Source: Candidatus Gottesmanbacteria bacterium
Lineage (GTDB): Bacteria; Patescibacteriota; Microgenomatia; UBA10105; UBA927
Assembly (NCBI GenBank): GCA_903821745.1
Contig: CAIJMI010000005.1
Coordinates: 57,051-121,050, forward strand
Reading direction: 5' to 3'
Length of the DNA: 64,000 bases
This document shows, in pieces, positions 3,069-52,561 of the stretch (the first letter of the stretch is position 1; every line of letters starts with the position of its first letter). The position numbers were made by a program, and so were the translations under genes. The notes beneath the pieces were generated by a model. That model was not told the DNA's origin. It made no database searches and was given only the letters and a program-made list of their open reading frames with translations.

Positions 3069-4481
<1,413 letters not shown>

Positions 4482-4489
4482 TAGGGTTT

Positions 4490-4921
4490 ATGGATACAAT
4501 GCATCTTTCAATTGTTACGCCACAGCGGGAAGCATTTAGTCAGGACGTGAATTTCGTGACTGTATCAACCCCAAATGGCACAATTGGTATTTTGCCAAAT
4601 CATGTTTCACTGGTCACAGCACTTGTTGAAGGAGAAATTAAGGTGACGGCCGGTGGGAAGGAGTCGTATTTTGCAATTGGTGGCGGTTTTATGCAGGTCA
4701 CCAAAAAGTCAGTTATCATTTTAGTATCACGCGCCGTACATGCAGATGAGCTGAATGAGGCGGAAATTAAAAAAGCACAGGAAAGCGCAAAAATGGATGT
4801 GAAACAAAAAGGTGCAGGGATTGAACGATCAGAAGCGCTTGCAATTTTGCGTCGTTCATCGCTTGAATTGAAGGTTTTACGACACAAAAAGCGACGAAGC
4901 GGTATGCCTAATGCACTATGA
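4490..4921 (+). CDS. atpC: ATP synthase F1 subunit epsilon
   Basis: Last gene of the operon at 143 aa, with a beta-sandwich N-terminus and helical C-terminus pattern. Confidence 0.75.
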   Translation: MDTMHLSIVTPQREAFSQDVNFVTVSTPNGTIGILPNHVSLVTALVEGEIKVTAGGKESYFAIGGGFMQVTKKSVIILVSRAVHADELNEAEIKKAQESAKMDVKQKGAGIERSEALAILRRSSLELKVLRHKKRRSGMPNAL

Positions 4922-5604: not shown

Positions 5605-6066
5605 ATGAACATATCACAAATCATGCGAAAGCATATCGTGATAGCTTCACTTGAAAGTACTGTTGCTGACCTGCTTCCTCTCTTTTTTGAAAAACGGCTA
5701 AATTCTCTTCCTATTTTAAATAGAAAGCATCAACTAGTTGGTATTGTCGTTCGAGAAGATGTATTAAGGTTATTGTATCCTGATTATCAGGAGTATATTC
5801 AGGACATGATTGTAAATGATGAGCTTGATGCTTTTGATAAGGATTTTAGTGAAGTCCTGCGGGTAAAAACAAAAGATGTTATGCAAACGAAAGTACTGAC
5901 TGCTACACCGAAAACTCGTGCAATGCAGGCATTAGCCCGTATGATAGCGCATCACATTGATCAGTTGCCCGTAGTGACAGATAAAGGGAAATTAGTAAGC
6001 ATGATCACAAAAGCAGATATTTTTTATGCCTTATATAAGGCAAATAAAAAGAGAATTCACCAATAA
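5605..6066 (+). CDS. CBS-domain pair protein
   Basis: 153 aa with two CBS-like repeats (...VADLLPLFFEKRLNSLPILNRKHQLVGIVVREDVL... and ...AMQALARMIAHHIDQLPVVTDKGKLVSMITKADI...). Confidence 0.7.
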   Translation: MNISQIMRKHIVIASLESTVADLLPLFFEKRLNSLPILNRKHQLVGIVVREDVLRLLYPDYQEYIQDMIVNDELDAFDKDFSEVLRVKTKDVMQTKVLTATPKTRAMQALARMIAHHIDQLPVVTDKGKLVSMITKADIFYALYKANKKRIHQ

Positions 6067-6107
6067 ATCTTCGTTGACGGAAGAGATGTTTTTTGTTAGC
6101 ATAGCGT

Positions 6108-7769
6108 ATGCTTACTAAATTTATTTTTGTATCTGGCGGTGTCATATCAGGGATTGGAAAAGGCAATACAACAGCTTCCATAGCACTTCTTTTAAAAAAC
6201 CGTGGGTACAGGGTTACGTGTGTAAAATGTGAAAATTATCTCAACATTGATGCCGGCCTCATTAATCCAATAGAACATGGTGATCCATATCTTCTTGACG
6301 ATGGAACGGAAGCAGATATGGACATGGGAACATATGAAAAATTTTTGGGAATTAACATGAAACGGCATAATTTTGTCACCATGGGACAAATTTACCGAAC
6401 GGTCATTGATAGGGAACGGAATTTTGAATATAAAGGGGAAGATGTTGAAGCAATTCCTAATGTAACGGATGAAATTATACGGCGTATCAAAGAAGCCGGA
6501 GAAATTGAAAAAGCAGAAATAGTTGTTGTAGAGCTTGGCGGTACTGCCGGAGAATACCAAAATCAACTATATTATGAAGCATCACGTATTCTATCACATA
6601 ATAAAAAAAATACAGTTATTCATGTACATGTCAGTTACCTACCAACTCCAACGCATTTGGGCGAGCCTAAAACGAAGCCAACACAGCTTTCAGTTCGGAC
6701 ATTAAATTCCATGGGTATTCAACCGGATTTTATTGTCGCCCGTGGTGAAAAAGCAGTAGATGAACGCCGTCGTGCACGATTTGCGCTGTTTTGCAACGTG
6801 GATCCAGAAAATATTATTAACAACCCTGACGTGGAAAGCAGTGTGTATGAAATTCCTTTGCAATTTGTAGAGCAGAAATTTGATGAAAAATTACTCCAAG
6901 CATTAGGACTTCCATTAGGAAAACCGCCTGCAATGACCCAGTGGAATAAGATGGTTGAAACCATTAAAGCAAAAAAGGAAAAGATAATCACGATTGCAAT
7001 CGTTGGAAAATATTTTACGACAGGTGACTACGAACTTCGGGATAGTTATGCAGCACTTCTGGATGCAATAGATCATGCAAGCTGGGCAAAAGGTGTTGCT
7101 GTTAAAACAAAATGGATACAGGCGGAAAAACTAGAAACTGGAACACTTGAAGAATTAAAAAATATTGACGGTGTCATTGTTCCAATTGGTTGGGGACCGC
7201 GTGGTGAAGAGGGGAAGATTAAAGCTATTGAATACGCCAGGGTGAATAAAATTCCCTACTTGGGACTTTGCTATGGTATGCAGCTTGCGGTTGTTGAGTA
7301 TGCTAGAAATGTTCTTCATCTTGATGGTGCAAATACCACAGAATGTGATCAGAATACTAAATATTCGGTTATTCATATGATTTCAGGACAAAAAGAAATC
7401 ATGGAACGACGAGCCTATGGTGGAACCATGCGTTTGGGTCGGTGGGAATGTAAAGTTGCACCAAATACGCAGTCAGATACAAGTTATACAACGTATAAAG
7501 GATATGACAATGCGGAAAAGAAGATTGTGGGAGAACGACATAGGCATCGCTACGAGTTTAATAATGCCTACGCAAGTCAGCTTGAAGCTGCAGGACTTGT
7601 TATTGCGGGTCGGAGTGTTGTAGAGAACCTGGTTGAGGTTATCGAGCTTCCTAAAGCAGTACACCCGTTCTTTGTTGGAACTCAGTATCATCCAGAATAT
7701 CGGTCTACGCCGCTCGTTCCACATCCATTATTTCTCGATTTCATAGCTAGTTGTCTTCAGGAAGCATAA
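6108..7769 (+). CDS. pyrG: CTP synthase
   Basis: N-terminus KFIFVSGGVISGIGKG..., the glutamine amidotransferase triad region GLCYGMQ..., and the C-terminus ...YHPEY.S.P..PHPLF; 553 aa. Confidence 0.95.
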   Translation: MLTKFIFVSGGVISGIGKGNTTASIALLLKNRGYRVTCVKCENYLNIDAGLINPIEHGDPYLLDDGTEADMDMGTYEKFLGINMKRHNFVTMGQIYRTVIDRERNFEYKGEDVEAIPNVTDEIIRRIKEAGEIEKAEIVVVELGGTAGEYQNQLYYEASRILSHNKKNTVIHVHVSYLPTPTHLGEPKTKPTQLSVRTLNSMGIQPDFIVARGEKAVDERRRARFALFCNVDPENIINNPDVESSVYEIPLQFVEQKFDEKLLQALGLPLGKPPAMTQWNKMVETIKAKKEKIITIAIVGKYFTTGDYELRDSYAALLDAIDHASWAKGVAVKTKWIQAEKLETGTLEELKNIDGVIVPIGWGPRGEEGKIKAIEYARVNKIPYLGLCYGMQLAVVEYARNVLHLDGANTTECDQNTKYSVIHMISGQKEIMERRAYGGTMRLGRWECKVAPNTQSDTSYTTYKGYDNAEKKIVGERHRHRYEFNNAYASQLEAAGLVIAGRSVVENLVEVIELPKAVHPFFVGTQYHPEYRSTPLVPHPLFLDFIASCLQEA

Positions 7770-42356: not shown

Positions 42357-42911
42357 TTATAACGTTATTATATTATTAAGCACCTTGCCAAAGGCTAAGG
42401 AAATAAAATTAACAACTACTGATTCAGGTTTTTGATAAGGTAAAGCAAACAATTCAACAACAAGCGCCTGCTCTATCCCATCTTTTTGATAATAAATGAC
42501 TGCTATACCAGTTTCTGTATATGTTTTCGATAACATAACATTTTTATGTTTTGGCGAATTGAGCCACCCTTGAATAACACCATTCACACTTTGATAGTCT
42601 TTAGCAAGATTCTCCCCAGCTTTCGTATAGTGATATCCAGTTCGCTGTATGAATGTCCATCCAGTATCATTTGTTTTTGGATTTATATGCGCCCAATATT
42701 CATTATTTTTCATGTCTTCAGCTTTCAATCTTGCGGCTACAATAAGCTTCTCATTCATCATAAGTGAAGGTAATCCATTTTGCTCTCTAACAGTATTGAC
42801 TGAATAAAGAAGTGCATCTGAAGTAATATCGGACGGGGCAGCCCAAATAGGAGTTGCACAACAAAATGCCATAACCAACACAATCACCAATAACTGCACA
42901 GCTTTGAACAT
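42357..42911 (-). CDS. secreted CAP/SCP/PR-1-like domain protein
   Basis: Signal peptide followed by CAP-domain blocks (...VNTVREQNGLPSL..., ...HYTQ(K)AGENLA..., ...GWLNSPKHKNVML...). Confidence 0.7.
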   Translation of the reverse strand: MFKAVQLLVIVLVMAFCCATPIWAAPSDITSDALLYSVNTVREQNGLPSLMMNEKLIVAARLKAEDMKNNEYWAHINPKTNDTGWTFIQRTGYHYTKAGENLAKDYQSVNGVIQGWLNSPKHKNVMLSKTYTETGIAVIYYQKDGIEQALVVELFALPYQKPESVVVNFISLAFGKVLNNIITL

Positions 42912-43006
42912 AGCTGTAGCGTACTATGGGTTTAATTAAGGATCTTGATAAGATATCTGACATAAATTTGTCAAAATAGTATTTTTCTGGTATACTTCAA
43001 AACTAT

Positions 43007-44224
43007 ATGTCTGGTTTAGCCCAATCTGTCGTTACAAATCAATATGAGCAAGCGGCGCAATCCTGGAAGGCAATGCTTGATATCGGGGATAATCTTTCAA
43101 TTCTATTTTTTCCATATTCAGACCGCGTCCGAAGAATCGAGCAATTCATTTCAGAAAATAAAAAATCACAAAAGGATGAATATCATCGAATATTTTTACA
43201 GATAGATCCACTTCTGCTTAATATTGAAGAAAAAAGTGATTTAATGGATAACATAATCAAGAAGCTAGAAAATAAAAAAATAATCCATAAAAAAGATTCT
43301 TTTGAAGCAGTAATAAAACAACTTGCTGTTAAAAAAATACAAATCGTACTTATAGTACTAACCGCCGACAGTCTTTTACTACAAAGCACTAAATTTTTTC
43401 TTGCCGCTCTTCATGAAATACTATATGAAAATAATCCGTTTATTGTCAGCGTGTGCTGTTTTGAAGTCGACATAACACACCCGCAATATGCTGCAATATT
43501 TCGTCAATACCCACAGTTATTACATAGTATTTTTTACTATCCTTTATACGATAAAAAAGACACGGAGCATTTTATTAAATATGTTGCAAAAAAATGGAAC
43601 GTTGCAATGACGCATCCACAAATTGATCACCTGATAGCAACCTGTGGCGGTAAATGGTGGTTTATTAAAGACGCGGTACGGCAACTTCGATTACAAAAAA
43701 GTTGGAATGAAGATACTGATGGAATGGTATACCGAAAAAACATGGTTATTCAATCTCTATTGTCGTCTGAACGAAGCGTTCTTTTAAAACTATTGACTGG
43801 AAGAAAAATATTTAACGAAGAGGAACAACATAGCATAAATCACCTAATAAAATTACGACTTATTAGTGATGACAATCACCTTCTTGTACCAATTTTAAGA
43901 AAACCTCTTCTTGCAAGTGTGCGATCTGACCATGCATTAACATATGAAAACAATATGGTCTATCTCAATCAAGTACCAATCGGAAGTTTTTTTTCAAGAA
44001 AAGAAATCAGGGCCTTAAAAATACTGGTTTCTCAACCAGGAACAATAATCTCCCGAGAAACGTTAGCGCAAGCAATTTGGCCAGCAAATACAAATGCAAA
44101 TTATTCTGATTGGGCAATTGATCAAATAATTGCGCGCGTGCGAAAACGATTACCAGAATTTGAAATTCCACCTGCCTCCATTAAGTCCATCCGCGGAAAA
44201 GGATATATGTATATTCAACTGTAA
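43007..44224 (+). CDS. hypothetical protein with C-terminal OmpR/PhoB-type winged-helix DNA-binding domain (trans_reg_C) and a ~300-aa uncharacterised N-terminal region
   Basis: The C-terminal ~95 aa (...FSRKEIRALKILVSQPGTIISRETLAQAIWPANTNANYSDWAIDQIIARVRKRL....IKSIRGKGYMYI) match the trans_reg_C wHTH pattern. The N-terminal part has no clear receiver-domain aspartate or other known motif. The gene is AT-rich. Confidence 0.55.
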   Translation: MSGLAQSVVTNQYEQAAQSWKAMLDIGDNLSILFFPYSDRVRRIEQFISENKKSQKDEYHRIFLQIDPLLLNIEEKSDLMDNIIKKLENKKIIHKKDSFEAVIKQLAVKKIQIVLIVLTADSLLLQSTKFFLAALHEILYENNPFIVSVCCFEVDITHPQYAAIFRQYPQLLHSIFYYPLYDKKDTEHFIKYVAKKWNVAMTHPQIDHLIATCGGKWWFIKDAVRQLRLQKSWNEDTDGMVYRKNMVIQSLLSSERSVLLKLLTGRKIFNEEEQHSINHLIKLRLISDDNHLLVPILRKPLLASVRSDHALTYENNMVYLNQVPIGSFFSRKEIRALKILVSQPGTIISRETLAQAIWPANTNANYSDWAIDQIIARVRKRLPEFEIPPASIKSIRGKGYMYIQL

Positions 44225-44228
44225 AACT

Positions 44229-46154
44229 ATGGTAAATCCTGAGATATTCCGAAATCCTGAACCCGACCTTATCTATCAAAGATCGTTGTTTGATGACACA
44301 GAAAGTTTTCTGGTGCGTTCTGAAAATCCCATCTATACGAAATCGCTTCTGTATTCCATAGACGAGGAAATAAAACTTCTTGCACGTTACCCTGATAAAA
44401 CAAATGCAGGCTTTATGCTGGTGGGGAGTCTTGCAAGATATCTATCGGGTCATGGCGATATTGATACCAACTGGAAAATACGAAAAAAAGCCGACAATAT
44501 GAAATATTTTATAAATAATCCCACACATATGCTTGATTTTGCGCGAATATCGGGACCCGATCAAGATATGGATACCACATTCGTATTTAATGACGCGGGC
44601 TCTCTTGAGAGTTTATACGCATATATCAAAGCAAATGTAGGCGATGCAGTAGAAAATATAACATATGAGACGTCGACAAATGGCGTACCTATCCAAACCA
44701 CGTACCTCGACTTCATTGATAAACACAATACAAAAATACACTTAGAATACGGTCCAATCTGCACAAATCCTAATGTTATACACATGACCATGGGATTTTT
44801 TAATGACAAAGAGAGAGTGTTCCATATAGACATCGCTGAATATCCCAAGGACGGCATCCAAGCAGAAAACCAAAATCGACTTGGAGGAAATACCATACTC
44901 GCGCAGGATGTCCGTCTTCCAATTTATGTGAATGGCAATGACGAAACCATGTATACACTTGATTTGAATAAAAGGAATAGCCTTTTTTTCAAAGAACGTA
45001 TAAATATTGATGAAAAACCAATAGATGCAGTAATGGAACTTGCAATCCGCGCGTTACGAATACATTTAATTCACTCAGACCAATTATTTTATGATTCGTC
45101 GTTCACATCATTAACTCCACTGTTTTTTACAAAGGGTAATGGTAACCTATTTGATCTTCGAAAAGGTATTCAAGGTTTTATACGAGCTGGGGAAAAACTA
45201 AGAAAAGAAAAGAATGAATTATTAAAAACAGAACTTCTTATTTGTATGGCCTATGATCCGTATGAAACCGCAAAATTTTTGCATGACACGGGATTATATC
45301 TTCTTTTTCCTGGCCTTCGTACCTTTACTCATGCAGATTGGAAACGTTTATATACATCCAACGCATTTACATTTTTACGGGATGGTACTCCAATAATAAA
45401 TAAAGATGTAAGGTCAATTGAAAATGTACAGTATTCGCATGAATATTTTCAACGCGTAAGGTGGAATAGAAATGTTAATGGCATAAAAATGTTCATTCGC
45501 GCGTTCGGTGAGGTCATGAAAACAAAAATAACTGATCTTGATATAAATAACTATGACCAAATGTACACCCTCTTGTTTACAACGGAATCAACTGCACCTA
45601 GATTCCATAGACAATTTACAAATCTTCCAAATGCACTAATAGATGCACTAAAAACATACCCAAGCGGTGTAACAGAACGTGAAATACAAGAATACGTACA
45701 AAGTATAATAAAACAAAAAATAACGCGCGAAGAATTTCAAGTAGCGTTATTTACATTAAAACAAAAAGGATATATTGACCGTCATAATCGATGGGTTAAT
45801 AGCAATACAAAAGTCGTATTTTATACCCCTCGCTTAAACAAAAATGGACATCTCGATACTACAACAATATCACTCAGACATCTTGAAATAAAAAGAGCTA
45901 TTGCAAATATTCAGGTACCTAACGGCAATGAAACAAAAATGCAAATCTTAGAAGAAATTCTTCAACTCCTCCCTTGCACATCTGTTGAATCCTTTCGTGC
46001 ACTTCGAGAAAATGAACGAAATTTACTAGTAAATCTTATGGAAGAAGAACTAAAAAAACGAAATGATATAACATTCGCAAATGAAGATTTAAAGATATTT
46101 ATAAGTGAAGTACAGCGAGCGTGTATAAATTTCAGCCGCAAAAGAGGTCTGTAA
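44229..46154 (+). CDS. large hypothetical protein (641 aa) with N-terminal Pol-beta/minimal-nucleotidyltransferase-like motif
   Basis: The start is 4 nt after the upstream stop. Residues 60-80, ...AGFMLVGSLARYLSGHGDIDTNWKI..., fit the hG[GS]-x9-13-Dh[DE]h nucleotidyltransferase signature (the MNT consensus GS.AR.....SDIDL). A candidate third acidic residue is in TTFVFNDAG. The ~500-aa remainder has no recognisable motif. Confidence 0.5.
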   Translation: MVNPEIFRNPEPDLIYQRSLFDDTESFLVRSENPIYTKSLLYSIDEEIKLLARYPDKTNAGFMLVGSLARYLSGHGDIDTNWKIRKKADNMKYFINNPTHMLDFARISGPDQDMDTTFVFNDAGSLESLYAYIKANVGDAVENITYETSTNGVPIQTTYLDFIDKHNTKIHLEYGPICTNPNVIHMTMGFFNDKERVFHIDIAEYPKDGIQAENQNRLGGNTILAQDVRLPIYVNGNDETMYTLDLNKRNSLFFKERINIDEKPIDAVMELAIRALRIHLIHSDQLFYDSSFTSLTPLFFTKGNGNLFDLRKGIQGFIRAGEKLRKEKNELLKTELLICMAYDPYETAKFLHDTGLYLLFPGLRTFTHADWKRLYTSNAFTFLRDGTPIINKDVRSIENVQYSHEYFQRVRWNRNVNGIKMFIRAFGEVMKTKITDLDINNYDQMYTLLFTTESTAPRFHRQFTNLPNALIDALKTYPSGVTEREIQEYVQSIIKQKITREEFQVALFTLKQKGYIDRHNRWVNSNTKVVFYTPRLNKNGHLDTTTISLRHLEIKRAIANIQVPNGNETKMQILEEILQLLPCTSVESFRALRENERNLLVNLMEEELKKRNDITFANEDLKIFISEVQRACINFSRKRGL

Positions 46155-46160
46155 CATATG

Positions 46161-46232
46161 CTGCCGGGCTAGGGATCGGACCTAGGAACTTCTGCTCCAA
46201 AGGCAGACGTGTTACCACTACACCACCCGGCA
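46161..46232 (-). tRNA. tRNA-Gln (anticodon TTG)
   Basis: The reverse complement TGCCGGGTGGTGTAGTGGTAACACGTCTGCCTTTGGAGCAGAAGTTCCTAGGTCCGATCCCTAGCCCGGCAG has a U1-A72 acceptor pair (Gln-typical), anticodon loop CTTTGGA and T-loop TCCGATC. Confidence 0.8.
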
Positions 46233-46238
46233 ACATTT

Positions 46239-46313
46239 TGGAGCGGCGGAAGGGATTTGAACCCTCGACCTCTTCCTTGGCAAGGAAGCATTCTACCACT
46301 GAACTACCGCCGC
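46239..46313 (-). tRNA. tRNA-Gly (anticodon GCC), CCA encoded
   Basis: The reverse complement GCGGCGGTAGTTCAGTGGTAGAATGCTTCCTTGCCAAGGAAGAGGTCGAGGGTTCAAATCCCTTCCGCCGCTCCA has anticodon loop TTGCCAA. Confidence 0.85.
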
Positions 46314-46468
46314 ACTGTTTATTTTCGTTAACAGTGCCGAGACTAGGAATTGCACCCAGATAACTTGTTTTTCAGACAAGCGCCTTGACTACCTCGGCCA
46401 TCTCGGCAAAGAAAACAGTCTTTATTATAGAATGTCTGTCTGTATCTGCCAATATCTGAAAAAAGATT

Positions 46469-51511: not shown

Positions 51512-51518
51512 TTACAAG

Positions 51519-51600
51519 TGCCTCCGAGAGGATTTGAACCTCTAAGGGTTGCCCCATATGCTCCTGAAGCATACGCGTCTACCAATTGCGCCACGGAGGC
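51519..51600 (-). tRNA. tRNA-Leu (anticodon CAG), long variable arm
   Basis: The reverse complement GCCTCCGTGGCGCAATTGGTAGACGCGTATGCTTCAGGAGCATATGGGGCAACCCTTAGAGGTTCAAATCCTCTCGGAGGCA has anticodon loop TTCAGGA. Confidence 0.85.
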
Positions 51601-51661
51601 TCCGCGACTACCAAAAATTATAACACACAAACATTTTATCCCTATAGTACAATACAGATGT

Positions 51662-52561
51662 ATGAAGAACGAATGGAAAAAACTCCCTGAAGCATTCTTA
51701 GATCGATTGGAACAAATCGTACCGAAAGATGCAGTAAAAAGGATACTGCATGCGTATACGGTGCAACGAAAAACGACCATTCGGGTTAATACCTTAAAAA
51801 CAACAACCGAAGAACTCTTAACTATATTTAAAGAGCACCATATTATTTATAAACCATCTGACATCTCGCCAATTGCATTTATTATTCAAAATGAAAAGCG
51901 GGATCTTCTTGATCTTGATGCGTATACTAAAGGTCTGTTCTATATTCAAAGCCTCTCAAGTCAACTCCCAGCACTTGCTCTTGATCCAAAGCCAAACGAG
52001 AAAATTCTTGATATCGCAGCAGCGCCAGGGAGCAAAACTACACAAATTGCAGCCATCATGAATAATACCGGTGAAATTGTTGCAAACGACAACAGTAGAA
52101 TCAGAGGATATAAATTAGAAGCAAATCTTAAAACTCAAGGCGTAACAAATACTAAAATAGGTATATCGGCAGGACAAACACTCTGGCAAATATATCCGGA
52201 ATATTTTGACCGCGCACTTGTTGATGCTCCTTGCAGTATGGAAGGAACTTTTACTACAACAAACCCAAAAACGTATGAGCATTGGTCTGTCAAAGAGAAC
52301 AAAGAATTAGTACAGAGACAAAAATGGTTACTCCGATCAGCAATCAGTGCAACAAAACCAGGAGGGATTATTGTCTACTCAACGTGCACACTTGAACCAT
52401 CAGAAAATGAACAGGTTATTGAATGGATATTGAAAAAAGAGAAAGGGCATATTGAACTAGCAAAACCAATGTCTCATATCTATCCGTCTGAAACCATGGA
52501 AGGATTTTTTGTTGCAACCCTTAAAAAAACTTCGTCAACCATCCCTTCGGTACTGCTCTAG
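51662..52561 (+). CDS. 16S rRNA m5C methyltransferase, RsmB/RsmF (NOL1/NOP2/Sun) family
   Basis: SAM-binding ...LDIAAAPGSKTTQIA... and catalytic ...DAPCSMEGT...YSTCTLEP... motifs. I placed the start at the ATG at 51662 because the ORF-track start at 51518 overlaps tRNA-Leu. Confidence 0.8.
   Translation: MKNEWKKLPEAFLDRLEQIVPKDAVKRILHAYTVQRKTTIRVNTLKTTTEELLTIFKEHHIIYKPSDISPIAFIIQNEKRDLLDLDAYTKGLFYIQSLSSQLPALALDPKPNEKILDIAAAPGSKTTQIAAIMNNTGEIVANDNSRIRGYKLEANLKTQGVTNTKIGISAGQTLWQIYPEYFDRALVDAPCSMEGTFTTTNPKTYEHWSVKENKELVQRQKWLLRSAISATKPGGIIVYSTCTLEPSENEQVIEWILKKEKGHIELAKPMSHIYPSETMEGFFVATLKKTSSTIPSVLL

Follow-up and report, generated by a model that had tools for sequence, protein, structure and literature searches.

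Background and the protein under study

Nucleotidyltransferases of the Pol-beta superfamily share an alpha-beta-alpha-beta-alpha core, in which an hG[GS] element starts the second helix, a [DE]h[DE]h element lies on the second strand, and the third carboxylate comes from an h[DE]h element on a structurally adjacent strand (Kuchta et al. 2009, PMC2794190). In the class II enzymes, that is, CCA-adding enzymes and bacterial poly(A) polymerases, the corresponding motif A reads GGxVRDxLLGx4DxD, with a short spacing from GG to DxD. Moreover, their motif B (DxxRRD) serves in ribose recognition and their motif D (EDxxR) is the base template (PMC2910056). Here we describe a protein of 641 residues encoded in a 64,000-nucleotide stretch of a Candidatus Gottesmanbacteria genome (contig CAIJMI010000005.1, positions 57,051 to 121,050; the whole stretch is called the window below), together with the gene directly upstream of it. 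The protein is an unannotated, lineage-restricted new variant within the Pol-beta nucleotidyltransferase superfamily. It is likely an active enzyme, with a head and neck remotely related to those of class II transfer RNA (tRNA) nucleotidyltransferases and bacterial poly(A) polymerase.

The open reading frame (ORF) occupies positions 44229-46154 of the window on the + strand, from an ATG at 44229 to a stop codon at 46152-46154, and its start methionine is common to the homologues in an alignment of eight close sequences. All features of this gene given below lie on the same strand. The protein has no match in Pfam, NCBIfam or PADLOC, and scans of Pfam, NCBIfam, PADLOC and PHROGs with the protein and 36 family members gave nothing significant. 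In particular, NTP_transf_2 (MNT; PF01909) was not matched at E<=10 by the query or at E<=0.1 by any of the 36 members. Literature searches did not find the family described.

Conserved residues of the family

A word-indexed search recovered eight close homologues with 36-100% identity, one of them from a Microgenomates metagenome-assembled genome (MAG), and the search repeated with two alignments (A1 and A2) returned the same eight proteins. An exhaustive search with a hidden Markov model (HMM) from the alignment of the eight then yielded 69 cluster representatives out of 1.84 billion; most are 600-800 residues long, and one is annotated as Candidatus Woesebacteria. A search with A1 located two related loci in GTDB genomes. 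The family alignment contains 73 sequences; the counts below are given out of 66-70 sequences, and some of them come from 36 members. A homologue with 51% identity lies on contig CAZSTG010000012.1 (L006), deposited as an "uncultured Gammaproteobacteria bacterium" MAG. Given Microgenomates and Woesebacteria as the source of other members, this contig is probably mis-binned.

Conservation pointed to a small set of residues. D113 is present in 67 of 67 sequences and D115 in 66 of 67, forming a conserved DxD (D113-M-D115, 44565-44573). Both stay near-invariant down to about 15% identity, along with R217 (68/68), R274 (69/69) and R277 (68/69). The Gly-Ser pair G66-S67 (44424-44429) is also conserved: position 66 is G in 51 and S in 12 of 66 sequences, position 67 is S in 48 and G in 8 of 66, and in the eight close sequences G66, S67, A69, R70 and Y71 are invariant. 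D201 (44829-44831), within F-H-I-D-I, is D in 54, H in 11 and E in 2 of 68 sequences, which makes it the candidate third carboxylate. E142 had been considered for this role and was rejected in favour of D201, as E occurs there in just 11 of 36 family members and is kept only in the close subfamily. N216-R217 (44874-44879) corresponds to a family consensus [KR]-R, with K in 45 and R in 12 sequences at position 216, and may be the counterpart of the two arginines of class II motif B (RRD). Further downstream, E270-x3-R274-x2-R277 (45036-45059; E270 in 62/69) has the spacing of class II motif D (EDxxRxxR), and E335 (60/70) and P344 (66/70) are kept as well.

Predicted structure and domain layout

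AlphaFold2 with the 73-sequence alignment gave a model with a predicted local distance difference test score (pLDDT) of 93.9 and a predicted template modelling score (pTM) of 0.92, which supersedes an earlier model from eight sequences (pLDDT 64.6). From the N terminus, the model runs through helix 38-52, strand 57-65, helix 66-72, a loop, helices 78-93 and 98-108, strand 112-120 and helix 126-136, followed by five antiparallel strands, the last of which is strand 195-204. This core fits the superfamily definition of PMC2794190, interrupted by a two-helix insertion. V65-G66-S67 opens helix 66-72 after helix 38-52 and strand 57-65, just as the hG[GS] element does, and D113-M-D115-T is placed on strand 112-120 as a [DE]h[DE]h element. 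I200-D201-I202, on strand 195-204, would be the h[DE]h element. The family-specific insertion comprises residues 73-110 (44445-44558), namely the loop and helices 78-93 and 98-108, and includes the conserved W82 (30/36).

Beyond the head, a helical, neck-like region spans residues 263-455 approximately (45015-45593; 265-451 in the model). Its first helix carries E270-x3-R274-x2-R277, and its other conserved positions are E335, D343-P344 and D353-[ST]-G...P361-G362. Then follow a winged-helix domain (residues 466-535, 45624-45833) and a C-terminal helical region (residues 552-640, 45882-46148). For the latter, a profile search gave a weak match to the RNA polymerase alpha C-terminal domain (helix-hairpin-helix, E 0.055), and in Foldseek the winged helix plus the C-terminal helices resemble a two-domain PadR (E 0.02); neither match is significant.

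A first-pass annotation, made from the sequence of this protein, had placed an MNT-type site at G66-S67 with a DxD nine residues later (D77-x-D79), had proposed D122 as the third carboxylate and had regarded this as the only catalytic-looking element of the protein. The ORF translation reproduces the residue positions exactly (codons 44424-44426 for G66, 44427-44429 for S67, 44457-44459 for D77 and 44463-44465 for D79), with nine residues between S67 and D77. The Gly-Ser half of the motif holds, being conserved and standing at a strand-helix turn as described, between strand 57-65 and helix 66-72. The DxD half does not: D77 occurs in 7 of the 8 close sequences but in only 6 of 36 family members, and D79 is found in the query alone among the eight, with D in 4 and E in 10 of 36 members at this position. 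In the model the nucleotidyltransferase fold is indeed present here, with D77 in the loop after helix 66-72 and D79 in helix 78-93, neither of them on a beta strand, so that the pair does not form a [DE]h[DE]h element. D122 is D in just 6 of 36 members, with D201 the better candidate, and D113-x-D115, D201, R217 and E270-x3-R274-x2-R277 are all far better conserved than the element singled out.

The spacing tells the same. Between S67 and D113 the family has 22 to 61 residues (median 48, and 45 in the query), and a D-x-[DE] placed 9-14 residues past the GS is seen in 6 of 66 members. Because the conserved DxD sits 45 residues after the GS and so few members have the short spacing, D77-x-D79 is a coincidence in one sequence. 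In fact, among the 19,197 residues of the window's 53 long ORFs, the pattern hG[GS]x9-13Dh[DE] is found a single time, against 0.74 expected from residue shuffles; judged from the letters, the match is not beyond chance as a bare pattern. A minimal MNT/KNTase-type nucleotidyltransferase, with D77-x-D79 as its DxD and D122 as its third carboxylate, is consequently a highly improbable description of this protein, even though the query fits hG[GS]x9DhD and its GS is truly conserved, since these aspartates are rarely kept, lie off any strand in the model and come without an NTP_transf_2 match. More generally, a GS-x9-DxD match of textbook form, read from one sequence, turned out to be half coincidence, which calls for caution with such motifs.

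Probable relationship to class II enzymes

The predicted model was closest to class II enzymes. The structural neighbours were the Aquifex A-adding enzyme (4wby, score 11.5), the CCA-adding enzymes of B. stearothermophilus (1miv, 10.7), human (1ou5, 10.5) and Thermotoga (3h37, 9.6), the E. coli poly(A) polymerase (3aql, 9.1) and the Arabidopsis CCA-adding enzyme (9kma, 8.9), and the head-plus-neck fold typical of class II enzymes is present in the target. By this model, the protein is structurally nearest to class II CCA-adding enzymes and poly(A) polymerases, and not to MNT, KNTase or cGAS. Of the site read in the first-pass annotation, the Pol-beta superfamily fold is thus retained, while the assignment to the MNT type is not.

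We compared the family with an alignment of five class II sequences, composed of E. coli K-12 Cca and PcnB and three PDB sequences taken from a phmmer alignment. By default, hhalign matched the neck only, pairing query residues 332-362 with Cca 177-209 (E 0.015). With greedy extension it produced a collinear path across head and neck, in which L-V-G-S-L-A-R is paired with L-V-G-G-A-V-R, a 33-residue gap covers 73-105 of the insertion, D113-x-D115 is paired with D21-x-D23 of E. coli Cca, E270-x3-R274-x2-R277 with E130-D-x2-R134-x2-R137 of motif D, and neck motif with neck motif. Global mode gave no meaningful alignment. The target and the class II/PcnB enzymes have the same order of elements, namely h-G-[GS] with its helix, the DxD strand, a later acidic strand, a basic pair and a neck helix E-x3-R-x2-R, and they also share the neck motif "E...L.D.G....hP".

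The differences are considerable as well. The target family has GS and class II enzymes have GG; from GS to DxD the family has 22-61 residues (median 48) and E. coli Cca has 12, so that no motif A of the class II form is found. Two extra beta strands stand in the target head on comparison of the model with the sequence of the B. stearothermophilus CCA-adding enzyme, a comparison that involved no superposition. Where class II enzymes have their body and tail, the target has different helices, a winged helix and a C-terminal helical region, and its family was accompanied by an OmpR-type partner gene in every locus checked. With the MNT/KNTase proteins (PF01909), the target has in common the superfamily core with its hG[GS] and [DE]h[DE]h elements. 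It is unlike them in spacing (9-13 residues there, median 48 here, and the short spacing in just 6 of 66 members) and in its 641-residue length with a neck domain, and it has no PF01909 match.

Several results weigh against an active enzyme of class II descent. Foldseek against the PDB gave no match at E<=0.001, and class II enzymes or other nucleotidyltransferases were not recovered. The comparison of the family with the five-sequence class II alignment reached only E 0.011, with a probability of 3-4%. PolyA_pol (PF01743) was not matched at E<=10 by the query or at E<=0.1 among the 36 members, and the family thus has no significant match to that profile. No nucleotidyltransferase came up when PDB sequences were searched with the single sequence and with two profiles, the sole matches being chance-level ones to translin and the RNA polymerase alpha C-terminal domain. 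In addition, motifs B and D are not found in full: of them just [KR]216-R217 and E270...R274 are kept, by a correspondence that we infer, position 271 is I, L or V where class II enzymes have the base-templating aspartate, and no aspartate follows [KR]-R217 as it does in the class II RRD. The candidate third carboxylate is His in 11 of 68 members, and by our reading of the sequence the winged helix has a recognition helix that is not basic. With the aspartates of motifs B and D absent, nucleotide specificity, if any, must be built differently. Even so, the class II head-neck scaffold is most likely the ancestor of the target, or both go back to a common one.

The partner gene and the two-gene module

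The gene directly upstream (43007-44224, +) encodes a 405-residue protein with a C-terminal OmpR/PhoB-type winged helix (Trans_reg_C, E 5e-13) and an N-terminal region of about 320 residues, and it ends 4 nucleotides ahead of the target ATG. In a profile search its C-terminus matched many PDB response-regulator DNA-binding domains. The protein has no receiver domain; in its N-terminal region the motifs F-E-x-D, Y-Y-P-L-Y and G-G-x-[WF]-W are conserved, and the homologue alignment shows no P-loop there. One of eight partner homologues matched AAA_35 (E 0.002), and the region may be a degenerate AAA-like domain. In close genomes the partner is 74-80% identical and the nucleotidyltransferase 36-54%.

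The partner was found directly upstream of a family member in four close and six distant loci, with anything from a 20-nucleotide overlap to an 8-nucleotide gap. In the close relatives this says little by itself, because the whole neighbourhood is conserved there (UvrC, a holin-like gene, CofD, SecG, SBP_bac_5, CAP, partner, target, PspC and Acyl_transf_3). The six distant members have 15-26% identity and their other neighbours differ: Obg in one locus; L11/L1 and L10/L12 in another; a GGDEF gene and Crp; Lgt; FtsH with ABC-transporter genes on the upstream side and an amino-acid kinase gene on the downstream side; and, in the last, a LysM-domain gene before the pair and a CAP gene and CTP synthase after it. 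In all six, a Trans_reg_C protein of 377-434 residues is encoded directly upstream, with an overlap of up to 20 nucleotides or a gap of 1-2 nucleotides; a seventh distant contig, which ends 173 nucleotides upstream of its family member, stands outside this count. As the partner is kept amid differing neighbours, the pair is a conserved two-gene module. The two genes probably form an operon, and the target is probably translationally coupled with its partner. A promoter-like site, TTGTCA-17-TATACT with TG (42968-42996, +), lies upstream of the partner and may be the promoter of this operon; it is a consensus match in a region that is not enriched for such sites.

Proposed mechanism and alternative explanations

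We judged an active nucleotidyltransferase most likely because the DxD is invariant and the GS, the third acidic residue and the arginines are conserved. In the mechanism that we propose, G66-S67 would be the turn holding the nucleoside triphosphate (NTP), D113 and D115 would be metal ligands on the second core strand with D201 probably as the third carboxylate, and R217 and the neck helix residues E270, R274 and R277 would probably line the nucleotide pocket. D77 and D79, in the insertion of about 40 residues and two helices that separates the GS helix from the DxD strand, would not be catalytic. By analogy with its relatives, the enzyme would take a nucleoside monophosphate from an NTP and attach it, without a template, to the 3'-OH of a nucleic acid that is probably RNA; action on a nucleic-acid 3' end is, by the same analogy, probable. 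The winged helix and C-terminal helices would stand in for the tRNA-binding body and tail domains, and the partner, predicted to bind DNA through its OmpR-type winged helix and bearing the degenerate AAA-like N-terminus, would regulate the operon or work with the enzyme.

Four alternatives were ranked lower than this active, class II-like nucleotidyltransferase. The acceptor might not be a nucleic acid at all, the protein instead AMPylating or UMPylating its partner in the manner of GlnE or GlnD, or making a nucleotide second messenger for the partner to sense, as cGAS, CD-NTase and OAS enzymes do. This we regard as rather unlikely, since the class II RNA-tailing enzymes lead by 2-4 Z units with alignments that extend across head and neck, neither GlnE, GlnD nor cGAS is among the best 60 structural matches, and a winged helix and helical C-terminus of its own suit a macromolecular ligand. 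OAS, cGAS and CD-NTase also differ in scoring below the class II enzymes; the target has no SMODS or Mab-21 Pfam match, and no effector gene is nearby. In the present pair the winged-helix gene comes first and the nucleotidyltransferase gene second, often with an overlap. This order and the overlaps resemble abiEi-abiEii, which would suit an AbiE/MenAT-type toxin-antitoxin or defence-like pair, with a winged-helix antitoxin and autoregulator upstream of a toxin nucleotidyltransferase modifying tRNA 3' ends. Such a role is nevertheless improbable, for there is no PADLOC, Pfam (DUF1814/AbiEii, AbiEi) or PHROG match, the two proteins greatly exceed AbiEi and AbiEii in size, and the winged helix of the partner is C-terminal and of OmpR type. 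Each examined locus has a single copy, set in stable chromosomal synteny with core genes in conserved order in the window and close relatives (e.g., UvrC, SecG), and no association with mobile elements was seen, nor were relatives found in phage, plasmid or IMG/VR collections.

We considered two further possibilities to be poorer still. A catalytically dead fold, merely binding nucleotide or nucleic acid, would agree with the replacement of D201 by His and with the degenerate specificity residues of motifs B and D. Such a loss of activity is very unlikely. Down to about 15% identity D113 and D115 are all but invariant, as are R217, R274 and R277, and an active site would be expected to show just this. 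The other possibility, slightly less probable again, is that the protein is the clade's own tRNA CCA-adding enzyme in place of a lost canonical cca. None of the 13 tRNA genes of the window encodes a 3' CCA, and hence the organism needs CCA-adding activity; the structural neighbours are CCA-adding enzymes, and by tblastn and hmmsearch no canonical class II enzyme (Cca, PcnB) was present in the window or the examined loci, which make up a small part of each genome. Against it, the window covers 64 kb of a genome of about 1 Mb (about 6%), the family is very rare (the 69 clusters given above), the EDxxR and RRD aspartates that define CTP/ATP and ribose recognition (PMC2910056) are missing, as are the body and tail domains, and the role does not explain the obligate pairing with a DNA-binding protein. 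It is for the rarity of the family, the divergence of its specificity motifs and the small visible share of the genome that we do not favour a CCA replacement.

Neighbouring genes

Adjoining the two-gene module in the window is a gene (42357-42911, -) for a CAP/SCP/PR-1-domain protein (PF00188) whose N-terminus carries a signal-like segment. In two distant genomes, where the remaining neighbours differ, such a gene again stands beside the module (4288-4794 of locus L010 and 5753-6280 of locus L017), and it may be a third associated gene. On the other side, a Gln-Gly-Phe tRNA cluster (46160-46407, -) converges on the stop codon of the target at a distance of 6 nucleotides, and in close relatives a PspC gene is directly downstream of the target. 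Further tRNA genes lie at 10 other sites of the window. Farther along, a 347-residue ORF (51518-52561, +) has a GTG start that coincides with the first base of an opposite-strand tRNA-Leu(cag) gene (51518-51600); its true start is probably further downstream.

Implications for the family

Pfam, NCBIfam, PADLOC and the PDB sequence set contain no annotation of the family, which, as far as seen, is confined to Microgenomates and Woesebacteria genomes, where most genes of unknown function stay opaque. The fold, the corrected active site (G66-S67, D113, D115 and probably D201) and the partner together turn a "hypothetical protein" into a testable enzyme. If an active enzyme of class II descent is indeed what it is, the CCA/poly(A)-polymerase scaffold would be extended to a new domain architecture. 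More tentatively, and with doubt on our part, the pair could be an undescribed, Microgenomates-specific two-protein system, in which a class II-like enzyme, its body and tail swapped for a winged helix and helical C-terminus, acts with a DNA-binding, ORC/AAA-like, OmpR-type partner. The enzyme could add nucleotides without a template to one particular RNA or DNA end, with the partner choosing the loci, or it could nucleotidylate the partner as a regulatory switch. If true, each of these would represent a function new to the class II scaffold and different from both CCA addition and polyadenylation.

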